The notes under the pieces: model-generated | What the model saw: the letters and a program-made list of their open reading frames with translations, nothing else | Told to the model about the DNA's origin: nothing | The model's database searches: none | Position numbers and translations under genes: made by a program | Assembly: GCA_965263165.1 (NCBI GenBank) | Contig: OZ253584.1 | Span: forward strand, 64,178 to 128,177 | Direction: 5' to 3' | From: Dehalococcoidia bacterium | Lineage (GTDB): Bacteria > Chloroflexota > Dehalococcoidia > Lucifugimonadales > SAR202-VII-2 | Length of the DNA stretch: 64,000 nt | Shown: piece after piece, positions 34,802-49,414 of the stretch | Layout of the letters: every line of letters starts with the position of its first letter | How positions within the stretch are numbered: position 1 is the stretch's first letter

Positions 34802-35149
34802 CTACCGGGCCCCGATGAACAGCGGCCTGAAAAAGCTGTGCAGCAGGTTCCGGTGGTGCGCCCACTGATGCGCCTCCCGGATCAGCTCTGGGGGCGCAAC
34901 GCGGCCGCCATGCGTGATCTTGATCGTCGTAAACCGCGGCCCGGGCGACTGCTTTGACTGCGCAGGGTACTCAATGGCACAGCCGTGACGCTCCACGGCC
35001 GCCTTCAACTCCGCGTAGCCCTTGACCCGCTTGTTGGGCGGAATGAATATCTCGAACTCCGAGCTTCCCACAACCTCGTGTACGTGGTCCTCTCCGGTCC
35101 CGCGCCCGCCACCCTGCCTGAGCTCCCGGCGGCTGATCTGCCTGCTCAC
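34802..35149 (-). CDS. Hypothetical protein
   Basis: GTG start overlaps the hydantoinase B stop (GTGA); plausible coding composition. Confidence 0.55.
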   Translation of the reverse strand: MSRQISRRELRQGGGRGTGEDHVHEVVGSSEFEIFIPPNKRVKGYAELKAAVERHGCAIEYPAQSKQSPGPRFTTIKITHGGRVAPPELIREAHQWAHHRNLLHSFFRPLFIGAR

Positions 35150-36879
35150 GAAGGGTCCTCCTGCGCCACCACCGGCCGACCCCAGCCCAGGAGTGCAGCC
35201 TGCGCTTCTTGTTCAGAGAGCCCGTAAACCTCGCGGGCCGCCTCGGGAGAGATGTACCCATCCAGCAAATCGCCGGCGACCCTGTCCCGGTCCCGATTCT
35301 TGGGGTCCCCCACGCCGCCCCCGCTGCCGGTTTGCAGGCGGAGGAGGTAGCCGGTCTCCAACGCCACGTTCGATACGTGAGACCGGTAGCGTTGCTCATT
35401 CGGCGCCCCGGGGTTCACCACCAACGACCCAACGGCCCCGTCGCCCCCGCCGGCGGCCCCGGGCGGCGCCACCATGTAACGCATGCCTCCGCCGGAGTAC
35501 GTCCCATCCTGGAGAATCTCATAATCGCGGACATAGGCCAAACCGCCCCGGTACTCCCCCACCCCGCCCGAATCCCGGACCAGGGTGAACTGCTGCATCC
35601 GGATCGGGTACTCCGTCTCCAGTACCTCCACGCAGGCAATCTTGGGTCCCGTGCCGCTGAACCCGCACCCAGACCAGCCGTCGCCGCCCATGAACGCGCC
35701 GCCCCCGCCCGGCGTGATCTCGTACTGGAGCGTTGTGCGTCCTCCCGGCCTCCTGCTTCCAATGGTCACATTCCCTCGCGCCCCGTGGTGCGCCCGCGGC
35801 GGCCGGCCCGACGCCTCGACCAGGGCGTCCATGACCATGTCTTCCAGGGTCGCCAGCACGTAGGAGTACAGGCTCACAGGCGCCGGATAGACCGGATTGA
35901 ACACGCTGCCGGGACGGAGCGCGTATTCGATCACCCGCCCAACTCCGTGGTTATTGGCCGGCGGATCGTCCATCATGCTCAGGATGGCATACAGGCAGCT
36001 TCCCGTAATGATGGGCGGGCGGCAGTTCACCGGACCCCGGTTCTGGTCGGGGCTCTGGGAAAAATCAAGCGTGATGTGGTCGTCTTCCTTGATGAGCCGC
36101 ACGTGGAAGCGGATCGGCGTCTCCATATCCACCATGTCGTTATCCAGATACGCCTCGGCCTCGTAGACGCCGTCCTTCCACTTGAAGATCTCCGCCCGCA
36201 GGTACTGCTCCGTCTTGTCGCCCACCATATCGAAGACGCCCAGGACGGTCTCCTTGCCGTATCTCGACATCAACTCCCGGATCCGCCGGCCGCCGATGCT
36301 GCTCTCGGGCCCCGCCTGCGAGTTGTAGTCCCCCAACAGCAGTTCAGGCGTTCGGCTGTTGGCCCGGATGAGAACGTCGGTCTCCTGGACAACCCTGCCC
36401 CGGCTCTTGTACTTCACGGGCGGGACGAGCGTCCCCTCGCCGAAGATGTCCCTGGCGTCCACCTGCCGGCTCCCCGGCGTCAGCCCCCCAATGTCCCCCT
36501 TGTGCGTGATCCCAATGCCGAACGCGACCAGCTCGCCCTCGAAGAAGATCGGCGTGATGGCGGCGCTGTCGAGGCTGTGGGCGCAGCCGCTGTAGTACGG
36601 GTGGTTGACGAAGAAGCAGTCGCCCTCCTCGATCTCGTCGTAGCCATAGAACCCCAGCAGACCCTCGATGCAGGCCGGATAGGAGCCGAGGTGGATGGGA
36701 ATGCTGGCGTGCTGGGCCACAACCCTACCCTCGCGGTCGACGATGCCGCAGCTCATGTCGTGGGTCTCGCGGATCAGCGTGGAGTAGCCCGTCCGGTACA
36801 TGGCGATCTGCATCTCCCGGACGATGCCGTCAAGCTGCGAACGGACAACCTCGAAGGTAATGGGGTCTACGTTGGCCAT
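35146..36879 (-). CDS. Hydantoinase B/oxoprolinase family protein, paralogue 2
   Basis: DPITFEV, NHPY, HSLD, HKGDIGG, EVLETEYP, GSGGGVGDP. Confidence 0.9.
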   Translation of the reverse strand: MANVDPITFEVVRSQLDGIVREMQIAMYRTGYSTLIRETHDMSCGIVDREGRVVAQHASIPIHLGSYPACIEGLLGFYGYDEIEEGDCFFVNHPYYSGCAHSLDSAAITPIFFEGELVAFGIGITHKGDIGGLTPGSRQVDARDIFGEGTLVPPVKYKSRGRVVQETDVLIRANSRTPELLLGDYNSQAGPESSIGGRRIRELMSRYGKETVLGVFDMVGDKTEQYLRAEIFKWKDGVYEAEAYLDNDMVDMETPIRFHVRLIKEDDHITLDFSQSPDQNRGPVNCRPPIITGSCLYAILSMMDDPPANNHGVGRVIEYALRPGSVFNPVYPAPVSLYSYVLATLEDMVMDALVEASGRPPRAHHGARGNVTIGSRRPGGRTTLQYEITPGGGGAFMGGDGWSGCGFSGTGPKIACVEVLETEYPIRMQQFTLVRDSGGVGEYRGGLAYVRDYEILQDGTYSGGGMRYMVAPPGAAGGGDGAVGSLVVNPGAPNEQRYRSHVSNVALETGYLLRLQTGSGGGVGDPKNRDRDRVAGDLLDGYISPEAAREVYGLSEQEAQAALLGWGRPVVAQEDPS

Positions 36880-36941
36880 ATTGTTCCTCTCCCTCAGCGC
36901 AGAACGGTTGCCAATCCTCGCAGCCTGGGGCGGCCTGCTTC

Positions 36942-38663
36942 CTACCGGCCCGCGGCTTGCTGGCGCCGTCCTTCAACGACCCCCTGGACATCCTCGTTGC
37001 TGAGGCCATAGACCTCGCGGGCCGCCTCCGGGGAGATAAAGCCGTCCAAGACATCGCTGGCAACCCGCTCCCGGTCCCGCTCCTTGGGGTCGCCGGCGCC
37101 GCCGCCACTGCCGGTCTGCAGGCGGAGCACGTCACCGGCCTTGAACTCGATGTTGGAGACCCTGGCCGTGAACTTCCGCTCTTCAAGGGTCCCCGGATTG
37201 AGCATGGTGTAACCGCGGGCGCCCGGCCCTCCGCCCTCCACGCCCTGGGGCTGCACCATGTAGCGGGCGGCGCCCCCGGAGTACGTCCCGTCCAGGAGAA
37301 TCTCATAGTCGCGGACGTAGGCGAAGCCGCCCCGGAACCGGCCCGGCCCGGCCGAGTCGGGAACGATGCCAAAGCGGCGCATGCGAATCGGGTACTCCGT
37401 CTCCAGGACCTCAACGCAGGCAATCTTGGGGCCCGTGCCGCCGAATCCGCAGCCCGTCCAACCGTCGCCGCCGGCGAAGGCCCCGCTTCCCCCGGGAGTC
37501 AACTCGTACTGCACGGTCGTGCGGACCCCGGAACGCCTTGTGCCGATGATGATATTCCCCGCCGCCCCGTGGTGCGCCCTCGAAGGACGGCCCGCCGCCT
37601 GTGTCAGGGCATTGATCACCATATCCTCCAGCGTAAAGAGGACCTGGGCGTAGACGCTCACCGGCGCGGGATAGGTGGGATTGAACACGCTCCCCGGCCT
37701 CATCACGAAGTCGATCACGCGGGTGGTCCCGTGGTTGTTTGGCGGAGGGATCTCCATCATGGCGAGGATGGCGTACATGCAACTCCCCATGATGATGGGG
37801 GGACGGCAGTTCACCGGGCCCCGGTTCTGGTCTGCGGTGTCCGAGAAGTCGAGCGTGAGGTGGTCCCCCTCCTTGATCAACCTGACGTGAAAGCGGACAG
37901 GCTTGTCCATGTCCACGAGGTCATTGTCCAGATAGGCCTCAGCCTCGTAAACGCCGTCCTTCCACTTGGAAATCTCGGCCCGCAGGTGCTGCTCCGTCTT
38001 ATCGCCGGCCATGTCGAACACGCTCAAGACCGTGTCCTTGCCGTATTTGGCCATCAACTCCTTGAGCCGCCGGGCGCCGATGCTGCTCTCCGGCCCCGCC
38101 TGCGCGTTGTAGTCCCCCAACAGCAGCTCAGGCGTGCGGCTGTTCGCCCGAATGAGAACGTCGGTCTCCCGGACGAGCTTGCCGCGGCGCCGGTGCTTCA
38201 CCGGCGGGACGAGCATCCCCTCCCCAAAGAGGTCCCTGGCGTTGACCTGCCGGCTCCCCGGCGTGAGTCCCCCGATGTCCCCCTTATGGGTGATGCTTAT
38301 GGCGAAAGCAACCAGTTCGCCCTCGAAGAAGATGGGGGTGATCGCCGCGCTATCGAGGCTGTGAGCGATGCCGCTGAAGTACGGATGGTTGACGAAGAAG
38401 CAGTCGCCTTCCTCAATCTCGTCGTACCCGTAGAACCGCAGCAGGCCCTCGATGCAGGCCGGATAGGAGCCAAGGTGGATGGGGATGCTGGCGTGCTGGG
38501 CCACGACCCTGCCCTCGCGGTCGACGAGGCCGCAGCTCATGTCGTGGGTCTCGCGAATCAGGGTCGAGTAGCCCGTCCGGTAGATGGCTATCTGCATCTC
38601 CTGGACGATGCCGTCAAGCTGGGACCGGACGATTTCGTAGGTTATGGGGTCTACGTCTGCCAT
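36942..38663 (-). CDS. Hydantoinase B/oxoprolinase family protein, paralogue 1
   Basis: Same motifs, collinear with and highly similar to the neighbouring gene. Confidence 0.9.
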   Translation of the reverse strand: MADVDPITYEIVRSQLDGIVQEMQIAIYRTGYSTLIRETHDMSCGLVDREGRVVAQHASIPIHLGSYPACIEGLLRFYGYDEIEEGDCFFVNHPYFSGIAHSLDSAAITPIFFEGELVAFAISITHKGDIGGLTPGSRQVNARDLFGEGMLVPPVKHRRRGKLVRETDVLIRANSRTPELLLGDYNAQAGPESSIGARRLKELMAKYGKDTVLSVFDMAGDKTEQHLRAEISKWKDGVYEAEAYLDNDLVDMDKPVRFHVRLIKEGDHLTLDFSDTADQNRGPVNCRPPIIMGSCMYAILAMMEIPPPNNHGTTRVIDFVMRPGSVFNPTYPAPVSVYAQVLFTLEDMVINALTQAAGRPSRAHHGAAGNIIIGTRRSGVRTTVQYELTPGGSGAFAGGDGWTGCGFGGTGPKIACVEVLETEYPIRMRRFGIVPDSAGPGRFRGGFAYVRDYEILLDGTYSGGAARYMVQPQGVEGGGPGARGYTMLNPGTLEERKFTARVSNIEFKAGDVLRLQTGSGGGAGDPKERDRERVASDVLDGFISPEAAREVYGLSNEDVQGVVEGRRQQAAGR

Positions 38664-38680
38664 CGTGCCCTGCGAGGCGG

Positions 38681-39118
38681 CTAAGAGGCCCAGGCCTGCT
38701 CGAGGGCGGCCAGGCCCACAATCGCCAGCTCCTCGTCCTCCTCGTTGCTGCGCCCGCTGACCCCCACCCCGCCCATCACCGCCCCATCCGACGCCCGCGT
38801 GACCACCAGGCCGCCCATGCCGCCGGTGAAGTTGGGGTTCCCATAGGCGGCGATGCTCCCAATCCCCTGTGCCTGCGCCCTCGCCTCCATGTCGCGGACG
38901 TTAACCCGCATGCAGGCCGAGGTGTAGGCCTTCTTGAAAGCGTTCTGGCGCGCCAGGGCCGTGTTCACCTCCCCCATGGCGGCCAGGCACAGCAGGTCCC
39001 CCCGGTGGTCGACAACGATGGCAGATATGGGGCGGCCCGGCACGCGGTCGGCCTCAGCCATGATGGCCTTGACCGCCCCCATTGCCTCGCGGATCCCCAG
39101 ATACTGCCTCAGATGCAT
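38681..39118 (-). CDS. GlcG/HbpS family heme-binding protein
   Basis: VVDHRG, KKAYTS, GGVGVSG..NEEDE. Confidence 0.85.
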   Translation of the reverse strand: MHLRQYLGIREAMGAVKAIMAEADRVPGRPISAIVVDHRGDLLCLAAMGEVNTALARQNAFKKAYTSACMRVNVRDMEARAQAQGIGSIAAYGNPNFTGGMGGLVVTRASDGAVMGGVGVSGRSNEEDEELAIVGLAALEQAWAS

Positions 39119-39234
39119 GTCCGCCTTCCTTGGATCCCCCAGGGGTGTGGAGCGCTCCCTAGGGTGGTGTCGGCCCAGGCCTCAGCGCGCCGCGTCCCCG
39201 AACCCCCGGCGCCCGCCGGGAACCACGACCTCCC

Positions 39235-39654
39235 CTACGGGCCCGCCGCTTGCAGTCCCAAGCGGGCAATCTCCTCGTCTTCATCGGGCGATGCTCCGCT
39301 GACCCCCACCCCGCCGACCACCGACCCATCCCCGGCGAGGATGGCGACGCCTCCTCGCGCCGAGGCCACAAGGCCGGGGTCGCCGTAGTCGGTCACGCTG
39401 CGGCCTTGGGCGCCCCGTTGCGCCGCAAAGTCCCGCAGGTCGGCGCGCATACGCGAAGCCGTGTAGGCCTTCCGGGTGGCGTAGTGCCGTGCGAAATGCG
39501 TCCCTCCATCCATCAGAGCGAACGCCATCAGCTCGCCCCGGTCGTCCACCACGGCAAGGGCCAGGGGACGCTCCGTCACCCGCGGCGCAGCCTCCATCAT
39601 TGCTTCCACGATGGCGAGCGCATCCGTGTGGTCGAGAACCTGCTTTTCGTACAT
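39235..39654 (-). CDS. GlcG/HbpS family heme-binding protein
   Basis: VVDDRG, RKAYTA, GGVGVSGASPDEDE; start placed at ATG 39654. Confidence 0.85.
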   Translation of the reverse strand: MYEKQVLDHTDALAIVEAMMEAAPRVTERPLALAVVDDRGELMAFALMDGGTHFARHYATRKAYTASRMRADLRDFAAQRGAQGRSVTDYGDPGLVASARGGVAILAGDGSVVGGVGVSGASPDEDEEIARLGLQAAGP

Positions 39655-39988
39655 GGCCTTTCCGATTGCCCCTTTCCGGTTGCCTAGGATACCACATCCG
39701 CCGGACGGCCCGGCGCCGTCGGCTGTCCCCGCGAGAGCCTGTTCAAGCCAATCCCCCCATTGCATTGTCAATACAGGACCGTAAAACGACACATGCGCCT
39801 ACACCGTCAAGGATGAGGCTGTCGTTCCCCAAGCGTGGTGCAGGAGCAACTCCTCTCTTCCTGCCCGGGTGCTCGGGTGCAAGTTAGGAAGGGGCTCTGA
39901 CCCGTCGACCGTGGCGACGGCGTTGGGAATGCTGCTCACGCAACCTCCAGGACAACCGAGGGTATGGGGGCGGGGTCGCAAGCCACAC

Positions 39989-40095
39989 AAAAAAGCCCGC
40001 CTCGGCGAGACGGGCTCCCAGGGACGGGCTGATAAGCAACCAAAGACGGGCCGAAACAGAGCCGGCCCGAAGGGGGCGGGACTAACCTGCTATGG
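39989..40095 (-). ncRNA. Putative small RNA or attenuated leader
   Basis: Minus-strand promoter TTGCGG-17-TAATGT, internal hairpin CGGGCCGG/TCGGCCCG, terminator AGCCCGTCTCGCCGAGGCGGGC-TTTTTT. Confidence 0.45.
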
Positions 40096-40415
40096 GCCTA
40101 CATTAGCACACACGTTCCACTTCCGCAAGAGGGTGTTGGCAGAGTGGACGGCGGGATGGCCTACCAGACTTGGCCTTAGTGTACTGTAATCAGACTGTGT
40201 CCCTAAGATGCGGCAGTCGCCGTTCTCGCAGGTGGAGTTTCTGACCGAGGAGACTGCGGTGAAGCGGCGGTCAAAGCGTTCCTTGGAGAATCCGAATCCG
40301 ATCCTGGTCGCGTGTGCCCACTTGCTGGGTGGGGTTGGAACGACGATAATGTATGGCGATCTTCCCGAAGACTTGTGGGCTCTATTCCGGTGAGTAGGTA
40401 TTATTTCTGGATATT

Positions 40416-41993
40416 ATGGTGAAGCTTGTCGACTTGCTAAAGCCAGGCTACTTCCCTAAAGAGCTTCCCCCGCCGTTCACGACAGAGTCATTCGAATCTC
40501 TTCTAGAACGTGATCCTTCCCTATTCGCTAGTCTGTCTAAGGGGCGTCAGGAAACCGTTCCCGCTCGGCACAGCCTATCTCGAGCGGGAAGTCTGCGACG
40601 CCTTCTTTCTATACCCAACCCGCTGTCGTTTCTTCGATTGTCGGAGTGGTTCGAACAAAATTGGGCTTTCGTGGAGAAACAATGCCGGAAATCCTCGCAT
40701 TCGTTGAGCAAGCCGCAGATGTCCTCGGCGGATCGAGCCGTAGTGGCGGAAGTCCCGTTCAATCAACAACCGACACATCAGGCAGATCTGCGCGCCAAGT
40801 CAAGATATATACTCAAAACGGATATCACCAATTGTTATCCATCCATCTACACGCATAGTATCTCTTGGGCATTGCATACGAAGGCGGAGGCGAAATCTCG
40901 TCGGGGTCCATCTGCCCTAATCGGCAATCAATTGGACAAGCTCGTCAGGGTTGGTCAGCACGGTCAAACTATTGGTATCCCAATCGGTCCTGACACATCA
41001 TTTATCATAGCAGAAATAGTCTTATCCTCGATCGATGAAGAATTCTGTAAGAGTATGAAGAAAGAGAAATTGGAGCTAAATGGCTTTAGATCATATGACG
41101 ACTTCGAATTCGGGTTCACTACTAGAGCCGATGCAGAGAGAGCAGTCTCGATTCTCCAAAAGGTGCTGAGCGAATACGAATTACAGCTCAACCCGGGTAA
41201 AACAACTATAGTGGAACTACCCGTTCCTATAGAATCAAATTGGGCATCGGAACTCCGCGCGTTTAAGTTCGATGACAATTCCCAGACTTGGGACCTGCGA
41301 AGGTATTTTGATCGCGCTTTCGAGTTTTCGAGACTGAACCGCGATTCAGAAGTTCTGAAGTACGCGATCCAGCGGTTGCGCTCTGTCGACATTGCCAGGA
41401 AGAACTGGACGCTATGCCAAGATCTCCTTTTGCAGTGTGCAATGGTCGAGCCCAGCGCATTGCCAGCAGTGGTCGATCATTTGCATTTCTATAAGAACAA
41501 AGGCTTCCCTTTGAACGTGCCCAAAGTTAGCGAGGTTTTCAACGTCCTATTGAGTTCACATGCGCCGCTAGGCCATGGCAGCGAGGTGGCCTGGGCCCTG
41601 TGGGGATGCTTGCTTTTCCATCTCCAGATCAAGAACTCTCCGGCATCGGCGGTTGCTGAGATGGATGACTCGGTTGCAGCGTTGCTATTGCTGCACGCTC
41701 AAGTTTTAGGATTGATCCGTAGCAAGACAGCACTCAAGATGGCACTACGAAATTGGCAGCAAGTGTTGACACAAGATGGACTTCGCGACAGTCAGTGGTT
41801 GCTATCGTATGAGGCGAACATCAAGGGTTGGCTTTCGTCAGCAAAGGACCACGTCTCGAACGATGCCCAGTTCAGCCTTCTAAAAAAGCATGGTGTGTCA
41901 TTTTACGACACTGGTAAAGTGAGGTCGCATACGCCTACCAAACGCTATCTGCCTGGTTCCGGAGCGGGAGGGGGAGATGGTGGCGGTTACTGA
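40416..41993 (+). CDS. RNA-directed DNA polymerase, UG/Abi-like defence-associated reverse transcriptase
   Basis: GYFPKELPPPF N-terminus, KTDITNCYPSIYTHSISWA, GIPIGPDTS, RSYDDF, LNPGKT, helical C-terminal domain; visibly lower GC than its flanks. Confidence 0.88.
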   Translation: MVKLVDLLKPGYFPKELPPPFTTESFESLLERDPSLFASLSKGRQETVPARHSLSRAGSLRRLLSIPNPLSFLRLSEWFEQNWAFVEKQCRKSSHSLSKPQMSSADRAVVAEVPFNQQPTHQADLRAKSRYILKTDITNCYPSIYTHSISWALHTKAEAKSRRGPSALIGNQLDKLVRVGQHGQTIGIPIGPDTSFIIAEIVLSSIDEEFCKSMKKEKLELNGFRSYDDFEFGFTTRADAERAVSILQKVLSEYELQLNPGKTTIVELPVPIESNWASELRAFKFDDNSQTWDLRRYFDRAFEFSRLNRDSEVLKYAIQRLRSVDIARKNWTLCQDLLLQCAMVEPSALPAVVDHLHFYKNKGFPLNVPKVSEVFNVLLSSHAPLGHGSEVAWALWGCLLFHLQIKNSPASAVAEMDDSVAALLLLHAQVLGLIRSKTALKMALRNWQQVLTQDGLRDSQWLLSYEANIKGWLSSAKDHVSNDAQFSLLKKHGVSFYDTGKVRSHTPTKRYLPGSGAGGGDGGGY

Positions 41994-42519
41994 AGTGAAC
42001 TCTGAAGTTTGGACAGATAGTTAAGTTTGAGTTCTGCTTGTAGGACCGCACGGGCAGGAGACGAGGAGGACATAGGAGAAGCCACTCCTTAGCGTTCAAG
42101 GCGAAGGCGCGGTTGGCGTCGGGTTACCGGAACTCGCCGCCAACGAAGCGGCGCATGCCAACCAGAACCTCCGTTGAAGGGGGGCGCAGGCCACAACAAC
42201 ACCCCCCGGGGCGCCTCTCTTCCTGCCCTCGTACTCGGGGGAAGGTTAGGAAGGGGGTCCCCCTCGCGGGAAGCAGAACAACGGCCCCCCCTCATCTCTC
42301 CAAGCGGGGTGCAGGGGACGCAGCCCTCGCCGGGGGTACAGGGGGTGTCCCCCTGTACCCCCGGCGGAGGGTGGGCAGGTGGGACAACGGCGCAGGCCAA
42401 AGCAGACCCTCCGCCGATGGAGGGCGCAAGCCACAACAAATCCATCCGCCCAGGTTATGCCCCACCCCCATTGCAAAATACGACATTGCAAAATACGAAC
42501 GATTGTGCTGTAGTACCCC

Positions 42520-42714
42520 CATGAAGTGGGCCACCGGCCCGCTTCTCTTCCTAGGAGCCTGCCGCATACATGAGCACTGGGGGCTAACCACAGAGAATCC
42601 CCCCTGTGGCAGGAGCGCTGAGGGAACAACCCAAGGGGCAAGACCCTCCGAGGAAGGTTGGGACCGGAGTGAATGCCGTTGTAAGGCACAGGCTTCCTGG
42701 AGCCATCCAACTCC
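42520..42714 (+). ncRNA. Putative structured RNA, copy A
   Basis: Follows TTGCAA-17-TGTAGT; multi-stem fold shared with copies B and C. Confidence 0.5.
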
Positions 42715-42814
42715 GTAACGGCTCGTAACGATTGGTAACGGCTCCGTAACGACTCGTAACAGCTTTGTAACGACTCGTAACGCCCTTGTAACGGCTTGTA
42801 ACGCCTTTGTAACG
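42715..42814. repeat. Phased GTAAC array
   Basis: 10 GTAAC cores spaced 10,10,11,10,11,10,11,10,11 bp. Confidence 0.85.
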
Positions 42815-43127
42815 GCTCCACGCCTACGGAGCGCCGGGGGAGAAGAAAACGCAGTAACGCATACAATCAAACAAAGCCCCGTCCGTCTCCCAAGCAGGGT
42901 GCAGGGGGCGCGCAGCCCCCGCCGGGGGTACAGGGGGAGTCCCCCTGTACCCAAAAACGTTGGAGGGCGGGCAGGTGGGACAACGGCGCACGCCAAACCA
43001 GACCCTCCGCTGAAGGAAGGCGCAGGCCACAACAAGCCCACCCATCCCCAATCCCTGCCCCCTGCCTCGGGGGAAGCCTCTGCCACATCCCCATTACATA
43101 ATACGAACTATTGTGCTATGGTAGCCC

Positions 43128-43320
43128 ATGAAGTGGGCAGCCGGCCCGCTTCTCTTTCTCGGAGCCTGCCGCATACATATTGCACTGGAGGCTAACTACA
43201 GAGAATCCCCCTGCGGCAGGGGCGTTGAGGGAACAACCCAAGGGGCAAGACCCTCCGAGGAAGGCTGGGACCGGAGCCAGTGCCGTTATAAGGCACAGGC
43301 GGTTTGGAGCCATCCCGCTC
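43128..43320 (+). ncRNA. Putative structured RNA, copy B
   Basis: Follows TTACAT-17-TATGGT; same stems as copy A, with pairing-compatible substitutions. Confidence 0.5.
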
Positions 43321-43321
43321 C

Positions 43322-43414
43322 ATGACGGTTCCGTTACGGTTCGTTACGGAACCATTACGGTTCCTTTACAGTTCCTTTACGGTTTGTTACGCCCTATTAC
43401 GCCTTTGTTACGGC
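43322..43414. repeat. Phased TTACG array
   Basis: 9 cores at 10/11-bp spacing. Confidence 0.8.
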
Positions 43415-43919
43415 CCCACGCCTACGGGAGAAGAAAAAGCAGGCGCACAAACAATCAAAGAGTCACAAACAATCAAAGAATGAGGTTGAGGCCGGGAGAA
43501 GCTCCTCCCGTCCCTGCCCGGATGCTCGGAGGAAGGTTAGGAAGCGTCCCATCCCCCAAGCAGGGTGCAGGGGGCCCAGCCCCCGCCGGGGGTACAGCGA
43601 GTCCCCCTGTTTCCAAAAACGTTGGAGGGTGGGCCGGTGGGACAACCGCCTCCGCCACCATAAGCCCCCTCCCGTCCATGCCCGGATGCTCGGAGGAAGG
43701 TTAGGAAGCGTCCCCCGTCATGCGCTTGAATCGCAGTGCGCCCCGCACAGCTTGTTCAGAGATTCCCTAGTGTGAACAGGCCCGAAACGAGGCCCATCCC
43801 TGAGGACGGAAGCAGCCGCCGCAGTGTTTCATGGTAGAATGCCGTGAAGCGAGACCCTTACCGTCCAACCAGGCTGGCAAGGACAATGCTGCCCGCGCCT
43901 GGAGCCTCCAGCGAATGGG

Positions 43920-47504: not shown

Positions 47505-48158
47505 TCAGGGCTTTGTAAGGCCTCGCTCCGCCATCTGCGACTCAAGGAACTGGCGGCCCGCGGAGGCGAACTCTCCCTCTGCAGCTGTCGCCGCGTCGAT
47601 GTCAAGCCAGAGTGACTGCAACAGAGCCGGTTCGCTCGCCGCTCGCTCCACAAGATCCAGCAGCCAATGTAGGCGCATGAGAGTCTCGCCCCGCGCGAAG
47701 AGTAAGTCCTTCCGATTCAGATCCAAGCGAGTAATCGTCGCCCGGGCACGTGCGCCGCCGCGTGGCAGTGCGAGCGGGCCGCCAAAGGCTACTTCCTCCT
47801 CGACGTCATCTACGTAAGGGTCGAGTAGTCGGCATTCTCGTATGTCGTAGTCTCCCTTGTTCGTGTTGCACTTAGGGCAGGCGATAGTTAAGTTCTCCCA
47901 GTCACAGACCAACTTCGGGTGCTTCCTCTTCGGTAGCTTGTGTTCGATGTGCGTATAGGCGACATCGCTGATTCGTCCCTCGCAATATGCGCACTTCGAA
48001 GCCGTCTCTGCCTCGAGCGCTGAACGGATCTCCGGGTGAGCGTAGCGGAGCGGAGCCGTCCCTATGGGGTTCACGCACCAGTTCACGTACTCAGCAGTCC
48101 ACGCCTCGCCGTTCTCTACGAGAACTTGAGGCCGCGATCCATGGCTCAGGCGGATCAC
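47505..48158 (-). CDS. HNH endonuclease (PtuB/Septu-like)
   Basis: KCAYCE, HIEHKLPK, WENLTIACPKCN, LLDPYVDD; overlaps the ATPase stop. Confidence 0.8.
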   Translation of the reverse strand: MIRLSHGSRPQVLVENGEAWTAEYVNWCVNPIGTAPLRYAHPEIRSALEAETASKCAYCEGRISDVAYTHIEHKLPKRKHPKLVCDWENLTIACPKCNTNKGDYDIRECRLLDPYVDDVEEEVAFGGPLALPRGGARARATITRLDLNRKDLLFARGETLMRLHWLLDLVERAASEPALLQSLWLDIDAATAAEGEFASAGRQFLESQMAERGLTKP

Positions 48159-49414
48159 ACTATGCCGCCCTTGCCTGTGTCATTGGCCGGCAGAAGTCGG
48201 TCTATGACCTTTGGGAACAGGTCACCCAGGCCGATTGAGTTGAGCTGCATTCTAAGTGTGGAGAGCAACTCCGTGGTGAGCTCTTTTTCCCCGACGGAGG
48301 CAACAATCTTATCGACTTCGTCCTCCACCCAGAGGGGAACGGGAAACGGCACCCCGAGAACGTCTGTAAGGATCTGATTTGCGGTAGCGGACCGGTCGAC
48401 ATCAGCGAGCTTTGTGGACTTCACGCGACCGTCTACGAAGTCGAGGACTACGACGTTCGAATCCCGGACCGATGTCACCACAAACGGGTTGTGTGTAGCA
48501 ACGATGAATTGCGCTTTAGGAAACGCGGCAAGGAGTCCAGGAAGCACGGAACGTTGGAGGCGTGGATGGAGGTGGTTTTCAGGCTCGTCCATCAGAACGG
48601 TGAAGGTCGCATCCGAGCGAGACCGCATGTAGATCTGCCAAGCGACGTCCACAAGTGCGGCGATGCCACCCGACGCTGCGTCCAGCGAGAAGTCACCGGT
48701 TCCCGTCTCCAGGATCACCTCTGGCATTTGCATCGCGATCCGTCGGAAGTCGAGGTCAGCGGGGAGCACACGGCGGAGGACTTCAGAGAAGCCCTCGAAC
48801 GTCTCGCGCGCCTCGTCGTTCGGTGTAACGACTTGGTTTCCATAGCCGAACATTGCCAGCGAGATCAGCGCCGCCTTTAGTCGGTAGCTGGGGGACTGAA
48901 TCTGGGCTTTGGGTTGGTAGAACTGGCGAAGATTGTCCAGGTACTGTCTAAACAGTTGATCACCTGCCTTAACGTCGGTAGGGATCTCGGTCACCCTTTG
49001 ATAGGAGTAGACCGGGCGGTGCGAGGTGATGTAGACGCCGGGCACTGCCTGTGAGTCACGGATTGCGATCTGGAAGGTGGCACCTTCCGTGGGTGACTGG
49101 AGGGCCGCGACGGCTCCGTCGTCGTAGGTGAGTTTCCCCACATCGAGGTTCCCGTCGTCGACGTCACTGATGACTCCGGAGAAGTACCTTAGAGCTCCCC
49201 GGCGGTCGATTCGGAGAGTGCCTATGAAGGTCGGTGTCCACCCGAAGTGCTGACTCAAAATGCTGAGAAGCGTTGTTTTGCCAGAGCCATTCGCGCCGGT
49301 GATGATCGTCGCCTGAGGGTGAAATTCAATCTGAACCGAGCCGAACTGGCGCCAACCTGCGATCTCAAGCGCCTGAAACTTAGTCATCTTTGGCCTCTCT
49401 GGGCTTTCTGTCAC
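48155..49414 (-). CDS. AAA/ABC-type ATPase (PtuA/Septu-like)
   Basis: Walker A GANGSGKTT, ASGG signature, LMDEPENHLHP, ATHNP. Confidence 0.82.
   Translation of the reverse strand: MTESPERPKMTKFQALEIAGWRQFGSVQIEFHPQATIITGANGSGKTTLLSILSQHFGWTPTFIGTLRIDRRGALRYFSGVISDVDDGNLDVGKLTYDDGAVAALQSPTEGATFQIAIRDSQAVPGVYITSHRPVYSYQRVTEIPTDVKAGDQLFRQYLDNLRQFYQPKAQIQSPSYRLKAALISLAMFGYGNQVVTPNDEARETFEGFSEVLRRVLPADLDFRRIAMQMPEVILETGTGDFSLDAASGGIAALVDVAWQIYMRSRSDATFTVLMDEPENHLHPRLQRSVLPGLLAAFPKAQFIVATHNPFVVTSVRDSNVVVLDFVDGRVKSTKLADVDRSATANQILTDVLGVPFPVPLWVEDEVDKIVASVGEKELTTELLSTLRMQLNSIGLGDLFPKVIDRLLPANDTGKGGIV

Follow-up and report, generated by a model that had tools for sequence, protein, structure and literature searches.

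What kind of reverse transcriptase (RT) is encoded by a gene that stands alone among metabolic genes, and what the Gly-rich tail of its product, which ends in a tyrosine, is used for, are the questions raised by the locus at positions 40416..41993 (+) of the window. The window is the whole stretch of DNA that was analysed, being 64,000 nucleotides of a Dehalococcoidia bacterium (contig OZ253584.1 of the GenBank assembly GCA_965263165.1). The gene is a member of the known DRT6/UG12 family and codes for a class 1 UG/Abi RT. By analogy with characterized homologs, it is probable that this protein is a self-contained abortive-infection enzyme of the DRT6 type, which would assemble as a hexamer, prime the synthesis of single-stranded DNA (ssDNA) from a hydroxyl group of its own, respond to a phage single-stranded-DNA-binding protein (SSB) as the trigger, act through a built-in RNase and use its tail as a sensor.

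The open reading frame (ORF) begins with an ATG codon and encodes 525 amino acids, followed by the stop codon. The start codon is credible because the N-terminus, MVKLVDLLKPGYFPKELPPPF, agrees with the start of the family consensus, and the C-terminus reads ...YLPGSGAGGGDGGGY, with GSGAGGGDGGGY as the end of the tail. The original prediction described a stand-alone UG/Abi-type defence RT and proposed a PADLOC search; this search returns the Drt6 model PDLC03748 at 585.5 bits (E 2.5e-176), with residues 3-503 of the protein aligned to positions 3-483 of the 511 of the profile, and the more specific assignment to DRT6/UG12 is obtained by PADLOC, by comparison with the Protein Data Bank (PDB) and by the fold. 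When the PDB is searched with phmmer, the protein matches the DRT6 chain of entry 9wy8, which is fused to maltose-binding protein, at 302 bits (E 7.5e-89) and the DRT4 chains at 108 bits (E 6e-30). The search with the family profile gives 466 bits (E 1.4e-138) for 9wy8 and 224 bits (E 3.7e-65) for DRT4, and the profile alignment to 9wy8 runs no further than chain residue 894. Other PADLOC models matching the protein are the UG15-derived Drt4 model (297 bits) and RT_UG30 (252 bits). The NCBIfam cut-offs are not reached for the Drt4 equivalog (268.1 bits, cut-off 450), for the group II RT/maturase TIGR04416 (40.7 bits, cut-off 300) or for the retron St85 RT (33.2 bits, cut-off 235). Pfam, at E<=1, finds RVT_1 as the sole domain (residues 97-267, E 1e-10) and no maturase domain, so that an RT without a group II maturase domain, as had been predicted, is indeed what is present.

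The AlphaFold2 model, which was calculated from a 66-sequence alignment, has a mean pLDDT (predicted local distance difference test) score of 93.7 and a predicted template-modelling (pTM) score of 0.91, and it matches the DRT6, DRT4 and AbiK structures over the full length. The first-ranked structure in the Foldseek comparison is 9wy8 ('Cryo-EM structure of the hexameric DRT6'), with template-modelling (TM) scores of 0.89/0.94, a root-mean-square deviation of 2.1 Å and 36% sequence identity; it is followed by DRT4/UG15 (TM 0.78-0.83, 23-24% identity), AbiK (0.60-0.74) and Abi-P2 (0.56). The RT structures of group II introns, retrons and diversity-generating retroelements (DGRs) match the RT core alone (TMq 0.33-0.38), and the values for DRT9 are 0.33-0.35. 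The secondary structure of the model, the fold matches and the single Pfam match are those of the class 1 UG/Abi RTs, as defined in PMC9226505.

Two lobes and a tail are distinguished in the model. The RT lobe (fingers and palm) comprises residues ~1-273 (40416..41234, +), which include the Pfam match and are modelled with pLDDT >90; its boundary is approximate and was set from the alignment to the RT lobe of DRT4, residues 1-286, according to the domain limits given in the preprint 10.64898/2026.10.27.754916. The C-terminal alpha-helical repeat (alphaRep) lobe, residues ~274-498 (41235..41909, +), is recognized from the model and from the fold match; its secondary structure is all-helical over residues 275-491, and it ends with the conserved GVSFYD motif (residues 493-498).

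The family is large. In a 90%-clustered collection, 2228 matches are found among 8000 scored candidates, and among 1.84 billion clusters at 50% identity there are 4303 representatives with E<=1e-3, 1190 of these with E<=1e-30. Named genomes with relatives include Pseudomonas, Paenibacillus, Verrucomicrobiae, Terriglobia and the archaeon Methanocalculus. UG12, that is DRT6, gives moderate protection of Escherichia coli against the phages T5 and ZL-19, and this immunity is lost on mutation of the RT catalytic site (Mestre et al. 2022, PMC9226505). As summarized in the Discussion of Wang et al. (PMC12783706), the DRT6 of Sphingopyxis is oligomeric and acts by abortive infection, its DNA is made without a template and is covalently attached to the protein, and the system has phage ORF55 as its activator and becomes toxic when sbcB is knocked out. 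In one review, DRT6 is referred to as 'characterized at low resolution'.

The catalytic residues are located in RT motif C, F-R-S-Y-D-D, at residues 224-229 (41085..41102, +), as identified from the motif position and the homolog alignment, the catalytic residues being Asp228 and Asp229. The R-S-Y-D-D sequence noticed in the original prediction is present, but its description as atypical has to be qualified: the first position of YxDD is variable throughout the family, and the two aspartates are kept. Among 105 near-full-length homologs, the motif is mostly FRYxDD, with Tyr at the first position of YxDD in 59 and S, A, N, V, T, H and others in the remaining 46. A small residue followed by Tyr (S/T/A/H-Y-D-D) is seen in 17 of the 105, and three more have Phe or Trp after the small residue; these are mostly the closest relatives of the window protein. 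Asp228 is conserved in 105/105, Asp229 in 104/105 and Asp136 in 105/105 of the homologs. Since the S-Y arrangement recurs across the subclade, SYDD is, as judged from the alignment, an inherited subclade variant of FRYxDD and not a lesion. In DRT4, the growing DNA has its 3' base stacked against the Tyr of YxDD (preprint 10.64898/2026.10.21.760695, section 7); in the SYDD subclade the aromatic residue lies one position further on, which may be compensatory.

A second conserved pair is formed by His147 (40854..40856, +) and Asp174 (40935..40937, +). By counting along the HMMER alignment, these are matched to His160 and Asp192, which form the RNase site (HD motif) of DRT4 (preprint 10.64898/2026.10.21.760695, section 7), and they are invariant in 105/105 homologs, in 17/17 genome-translated relatives and in 140/140 non-redundant sequences. 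The RNase of DRT4 is switched on by DNA synthesis together with phage SSB, as described in the preprints 10.64898/2026.10.21.760695 and 10.64898/2026.10.27.754916. The invariance of the putative HD pair fits an effector that is built into the enzyme throughout the DRT6 family. It had been noticed originally that there is no adjacent effector gene, and the neighbours are indeed metabolic genes without a PADLOC match; the lack of such a gene would be accounted for by an RNase site within the enzyme itself.

The tail comprises the 27 residues 499-525 (41910..41990, +) that come after GVSFYD, and it is delineated by the tail statistics, the AlphaFold2 model and the identity within the subclade. 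It consists of a proximal part with the pattern KV.SH.PS.R (residues ~499-511) and a distal, Gly-rich part which ends with Tyr525 (41988-41990, +), the tip being GGGDGGGY; the Gly-rich tail with a Tyr end, seen already in the original prediction, is thus verified in the sequence. The pLDDT has a mean of 89 over residues 501-510 and lies below 50 for residues 515-525. Within the subclade, sampled as 20 sequences with ~50% identity or more to the window protein, the core shows a mean pairwise identity of 0.58, the proximal tail one of 0.40 and the distal tail one of 0.23.

The tail statistics were obtained from several samples, whose sequences are mutually related, so that the counts are not independent trials. 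Of the 120 best matches, taken without selection, 114 contain the anchor motif followed by 10 or more tail residues. Tyr is the last residue in 47 of these 114 close homologs and occurs within the last five residues in 88, and its frequency of 0.163 in the last five residues exceeds both that of the remaining tail (0.025) and the overall value (0.035); this enrichment is more than chance. The final column of the MAFFT alignment is Tyr in 74/105 homologs. As for the conservation of the terminal Tyr, a distal tail Tyr is present in all 20 subclade members (usually past a Gly run and followed by 0-27 residues), but it is not universal. In the non-redundant sample (150 representatives, 126 scorable), Tyr is within the last five residues in 63/126 and an aromatic residue in 89/126, the last residue is Tyr in 22 and Phe in 19, and 27/126 tails have no Tyr anywhere, the 99 tails with Tyr comparing with 81.6 expected by chance. 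A terminal Tyr is mostly lacking in genome copies that are further removed (35-43% identity), for example in those of three Pseudomonas loci. The near-invariance of Tyr525 in the alignment A1 is not used as evidence, since this alignment was hand-picked and is enriched for Tyr tails. On the evidence of these alignments, the Gly-rich tail ending in Tyr is a real and recurrent feature of the family.

The tips of the tails can be grouped into types, which in 140 relatives are a Gly run plus Tyr (13), acidic plus Tyr (11), other Tyr (41), acidic plus Phe (16), ...LFS... (5), other Phe/Trp (11), no aromatic tip (42) and too short (1). When mapped on the core tree, these types are scattered, with 73 Fitch changes as compared with 81.7 +/- 2.8 in 300 label shuffles. 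The Gly-run set consists of the 36 tails, out of 260 sequences with a length of 480 residues or more, that have GGG in the last 30 residues; the run is followed by Tyr in 30 of them (in 25 at a distance of no more than four residues) and by Ser or Thr in 6, and in none by Phe or Trp only.

In the proposed mechanism, the window RT is most likely hexameric, by homology to DRT6 and DRT4, and a hydroxyl side chain of its own would prime untemplated synthesis of ssDNA, the product staying covalently attached to the protein. On infection, a phage SSB would engage the attached DNA and thereby turn on the toxic output, which is probably generated by the predicted RNase site His147/Asp174 of the enzyme itself. 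The tail would most likely be the counterpart of the sensory C-terminal subdomain of DRT4, functioning as a fast-evolving docking module of which the aromatic tip, Tyr525, contacts the partner. In DRT4, residues 508-540 are not resolved; they bind the phage SSB gp44 and are needed for defence and for RNase activation (preprint 10.64898/2026.10.21.760695, section 11). The variants of the DRT4 C-terminal domain that were studied in this preprint keep ssDNA synthesis, the deletion variant at a level comparable to wild type, and a 38-residue C-terminal deletion of UG15 (DRT4) ends immunity (PMC9226505). The model of the DRT6 chain in 9wy8 comprises no more than 495 residues, from which it follows that the DRT6 tail is unresolved too. 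The sensor or docking function of the tail is considered to be part of the best explanation, being ranked ahead of priming from the tail, and is on balance the likelier role.

Several points weigh against this explanation. What is established here are the family, the fold, the catalytic DD, the HD pair, the stand-alone context, the horizontal origin (see below) and the tail statistics; all that goes beyond family membership, that is the polymerase chemistry, the oligomer, the RNase output, the trigger and the role of the tail, is transferred from homologs with 36% (DRT6) and 23-24% (DRT4) identity. The family label itself is affected by two older PADLOC models labelled Drt4, which reach 551 and 542 bits; because these score almost equally, the DRT6 label rests on the PDB and fold comparisons. 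RNase activity is on record for DRT4 only. His147 is located within RT motif 2, a place at which many RTs have a His, and its invariance is therefore not specific for an RNase; for this reason the putative RNase site is deduced mainly from Asp174 and from homology. The priming Tyr of DRT4 is not present in the window protein, in which, according to the HMMER alignment to the DRT4 chains, Val113 (40752..40754, +) is at this position. The Gly-run tails, in which the run is never followed by only Phe or Trp, suit a hydroxyl-dependent role better than pure aromatic docking. An ExoI-type C-terminal domain (PF08411) was not found in the host genome (94.85% complete, one contig), and consequently the exonuclease-restraint model of E. 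coli may not be transferable as it stands. Finally, the immediate neighbourhood of the gene is metabolic and is not a defence island.

The foremost alternative, which is the reading given in the original prediction and is considered rather unlikely, is that the flexible Gly-rich tail brings Tyr525 into the RT active site of its own or of a neighbouring protomer, where its hydroxyl primes DNA synthesis. Tyr125 of DRT4 is reported to be absolutely conserved in 174 DRT4 systems (PMC12783706). In the corresponding column, Tyr is found in 17/105 homologs and in 0/20 members of the subclade, in which the distal tail Tyr is always present, and the enrichment of Tyr at the very end of the tails of the close homologs also argues for such a role, as does the retention of a hydroxyl residue in the Gly-run tails. 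The primer position is highly variable among the class 1 RTs, being Y44 in AbiK, Y61 in Abi-P2, Y298/Y303 in a flexible linker of AbiA and Y125 in DRT4 (Discussion of PMC12783706), and the closest precedent is DRT9, where two tyrosines of the C-terminal tail, Y496 and Y498, are implicated as primers (PMC12483538).

Other observations count against a priming role of the tail. A tail Tyr is not found in all members of the family, Phe is almost as common as Tyr at the very end of the non-redundant tails, and the tip is hypervariable. In DRT9, AlphaFold places the tail Tyr residues beside the active site, whereas the tip of the window tail is undocked in the AlphaFold2 model, the low pLDDT of residues 515-525 giving no predicted docking near the active site. 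It was also considered whether the loop Tyr and the tail Tyr are complementary, but this was rejected, since a terminal Tyr accompanies the loop Tyr in 15 of 17 cases, and 15/122 sequences have neither the DRT4-type Tyr nor a tail Tyr. When its homologous tail is deleted, DRT4 polymerizes normally (preprint 10.64898/2026.10.21.760695). According to a sentence of one preprint, the structures of AbiK, DRT4 and DRT6 'captured covalently attached ssDNA products', and with the tail unmodelled in the DRT6 structure, this hints at a primer in the core. Near-universal hydroxyl residues of the core are T23, S96, S98, Y141, S143, Y145, T146, T185, S195, T263, Y465 and Y497. The primer residue of DRT6 was not found in the literature searched, which left out the dedicated DRT6 cryo-EM paper; the Discussion of PMC12783706, with its list of primers in relatives, gives none for DRT6.

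In other branches of the family the tail ends differently. Acidic tails ending with ...DIPF, ...NIPF, ...KLPF, ...AQPF, ...YPF or ...DPF are seen in P0237, P0187, P0188, P0219, P0223, P0192, P0247 and P0257; the PF ending occurs in 8/140 and the acidic tail with a Phe end in 16/140 non-redundant relatives. The bacterial SSB, as is generally known, has a C-terminal tail in which a Gly-rich linker is followed by an acidic ...D-D-[IL]-P-F tip, and the SSB of the host (G000:C1:627016-627327, minus strand) ends with ...DQDDLPF past a Gly-containing linker. SbcB is an exonuclease that interacts with SSB. As the DRT4 tail binds phage SSB and SbcB restrains DRT6 in E. coli, the imitation of the SSB tail by some DRT6-family tails can be put forward as a hypothesis that deserves a test. 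The preprint 10.64898/2026.10.27.754916 quotes a 'DDIPF' motif. The likeness to SSB concerns the way of working and these other branches only; SSB mimicry by the window protein was rejected, as its tail, GGGDGGGY, does not copy the host tip. A more general scheme can be formulated, in which a large DRT6 branch that has lost the internal primer Tyr primes from the last residue of the chain (a Gly-tethered Tyr or Ser/Thr reaching the active site of its own or of a neighbouring protomer), acidic ...IPF tips elsewhere act as baits imitating SSB, and the polymerase-RNase core stays constant while the hypervariable tails, as primer or bait modules, can be exchanged; this scheme is speculative and would seem improbable at present.

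The comparison with relatives also bears on the way in which the gene has come to its site. The GC content of the ORF is 0.503, as compared with 0.638 for the genome (3.09 Mb, single contig), in agreement with the low GC noticed originally, and this places the ORF within the lowest 0.2% of 15,460 genome windows of the same size. It lies in a low-GC island at 40165..42143 (no strand assigned), which carries only the RT gene and is identified from blastn, GC content and the comparison with G002, a genome of the same genus; in a blastn search against its own genome the sequence over ~40193-42094 is single copy, and the island GC is 0.508. The gene is the sole RVT_1 match in the genome. In G002, both flanks are 94% identical, and the 5.05 kb between them are taken up by another low-GC cargo with the same dispersed repeats after it; the homology breaks at ~40164 and resumes in the repeats and the right flank. 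The hotspot so defined, with the HbpS-like genes on one side and the NAD-binding oxidoreductase gene on the other, is located at G002:C3:95700-101200 (L033) and, in the congeneric genome G001, at G001:C3:187700-189300 (L034). The cargo of G002 is ~2.9 kb long and of low GC, and for its 8 ORFs tested no Pfam or PADLOC match was found; the gap in G001 is ~1.1 kb. As for a target-site duplication, no exact direct repeat of at least 8 nucleotides was found at the ends of the island.

A match to the RT is found in 3 of the 31 genomes searched (the genome of the window and 30 relatives). The genome of the window is itself one of the three; another has a different RT (39% identity, core only), and the third, which belongs to another family of the order, has a homolog with 51% identity. 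The closest genome relative is L004, from a Dehalococcoidia metagenome-assembled genome, with 74% protein and 77.6% nucleotide identity. The GC content of the RT gene is below that of its flanks in 12/13 related loci, and in 9/13 there is a PADLOC match within ~4 kb of the RT, with no partner common to all; these neighbours include type I restriction-modification, JetD plus PDC-S06, a GajB-like helicase, RmrTA, type IV restriction, SLATT and others. As a single-copy, low-GC island at a variable site, without a shared partner, the gene is a mobile, stand-alone defence cassette in a variable hotspot and has been acquired horizontally.

At the Pseudomonas loci L010, L013 and L017, a convergent gene on the opposite strand, ~70-470 bp downstream of the RT, is matched by PADLOC models of RT-associated SLATT proteins (E ~1e-28 to 1e-29); this SLATT-like gene may be part of a neighbouring RT system or a lineage-specific partner. 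Upstream of the RT gene in the window, a 61-residue ORF (40208-40393) is considered spurious, having no Pfam or PADLOC match and not being conserved in L004.

It is very improbable that the gene is an inactive, decaying remnant or a non-defence RT, kept only through its recent arrival. Such a state would be in line with the position of the gene among metabolic genes, outside a dense defence island, with the replacement by Ser of the first Tyr of YxDD, the residue stacking on the primer 3' base in DRT4, and with the closest genome relative, in which the RT (L004:4001-5566) has an in-frame stop at codon 10. The window protein has Pro at this codon and P0001 has Arg, and the stop may mean that this gene is a pseudogene, that the sequence contains an error or that translation starts later, a 436-residue form (P0014) being on record. 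The frame of the window gene is open throughout its length, however, and the residues that are invariant in alignment A1 are all present. The complete or nearly complete conservation of D136, H147, D174, D228 and D229, the high confidence of the AlphaFold2 model and the recurrence of the S-Y arrangement in the subclade, as an inherited variant, likewise speak for an intact enzyme, and the family is large and linked to defence through its PADLOC neighbours. The public cluster representative P0001, which is listed with 100% identity, departs from the window protein at only two residues (P10R and E27G), and near-identical copies of the RT therefore exist in public data.

The gene is flanked by repeats on both sides. 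A composite repeat of ~600 bp is present in ~2.7 tandem copies at 42144-43760 and also at 39793-39990, and is characterized by a GTAACG motif with 10-11-nucleotide periodicity and by the palindrome GGGGGTACAGGGGG/CCCCCTGTACCCCC. In the whole genome, 830 blastn high-scoring segment pairs merge into 195 loci covering ~83 kb, or 2.7% of the genome, over the entire chromosome. No Rfam model matches the composite repeat, and it is not linked to any RT; candidates for its nature are a miniature inverted-repeat transposable element, a REP-like element or an RNA. As a genome-wide family which is absent from the flanks of the closest relatives, these repeats were rejected as part of the RT system.

The suggestion of the original prediction that neighbouring RNAs may be involved is not upheld. 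The nucleotide conservation with L004 is limited to 40405-41952, that is, to the coding sequence only; Rfam has nothing near the RT gene at the gathering score, retron RNA included, the two matches at E<=1 being chance-level miRNA matches on a palindrome; the 223-nucleotide leader of the gene folds no better than its shuffles (z +0.56); and the scan for promoters and terminators around the gene gives chance-level results. The locus thus has the properties of a single-gene system, with no partner gene and no noncoding RNA (ncRNA). The possibility that the RT belongs to a retroelement, be it a group II intron, a retron or a DGR, with an RNA partner in the repeat-rich flanks, which the repeats on both sides and the early suspicion of RNAs had suggested, is effectively refuted by these RNA results, by the dispersal of the repeats through the genome and their absence beside the closest relatives, by group II and retron NCBIfam scores far below the cut-offs together with the lack of a maturase domain, and by structural matches to such RTs that are confined to the RT core.

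The immediate neighbours of the RT gene are two hydantoinase B genes, two HbpS-like genes and genes for an NAD-binding oxidoreductase, a cytochrome c and a Cache-domain protein, none of which has a PADLOC match. The hydantoinase B/oxoprolinase and HbpS-like genes form tandem paralog pairs just upstream of the island, at 35146-39792 (-), and G001 and G002 contain many further hydantoinase B paralogs, with 21-22 DNA matches in each of these two genomes. The nearest defence genes are the Septu pair ~5.5 kb downstream of the RT, PtuA (48155-49414, -, PADLOC E 4.7e-146) and the HNH protein PtuB (47505-48158, -, PADLOC E 3.7e-55), whose GC content is slightly low (0.58-0.60).

The gene itself is ordinary, being one more defence RT of the DRT6 type. 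It extends the hosts of a family so far validated only in E. coli to a GC-rich genome of 3.1 Mb. As the HD pair is invariant in the DRT6-like sequences examined, the model developed for DRT4, in which polymerization licenses RNA cleavage, may extend to DRT6. The primer Tyr of DRT4 is not conserved in the DRT6-like enzymes, and the identity of their primer is a directly testable question. The recurring and quickly changing tip types, such as the Gly run plus Tyr, the SSB-like acidic tip plus Phe and ...LFS..., provide a possible handle on the specificity of the trigger.

Among the known systems compared with the window protein, DRT9 (UG28) is a class 2 enzyme, for which the comparison concerns only the way of working, the fold being shared over the RT core only; DRT9 needs an ncRNA as scaffold and template and its product is poly-dA. 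AbiK of Lactococcus and Abi-P2 of P2-like prophages are class 1 UG/Abi RTs with the alphaRep lobe, at 15-19% identity and TM scores of 0.56-0.74, and the PADLOC models of AbiK cover only residues ~21-284 of the window protein. Their DNA synthesis is protein-primed and untemplated, and the primers Tyr44 and Tyr61 are in the fingers loop (Discussion of PMC12783706). DRT4 (UG15) of E. coli (PDB entries 9vdo, 9ltm, 21ou and 9l9s) is a single-gene abortive-infection system with the same class 1 fold and has a flexible C-terminal tail after the same G-V-x-F motif. It differs from the window protein, to which it is only 23-24% identical, in having the primer Tyr125 at the position of Val113 and the stacking Tyr of YxDD at the position of the Ser, the Tyr of the window protein being one position further on. 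The closest similarity is with the DRT6 of Sphingopyxis sp. (9wy8), a hexamer of two back-to-back trimers. Here, the identity is 36%, motif C is GFRYVDD instead of FRSYDD, and the tail has ~70 residues, as deduced by chain arithmetic, instead of 27. The C-terminal tail is missing from the solved 9wy8 model, and the window protein is also tailed. Both proteins are encoded by a single gene and have the same RT plus alphaRep architecture, and they can be aligned end to end over residues 2-500.

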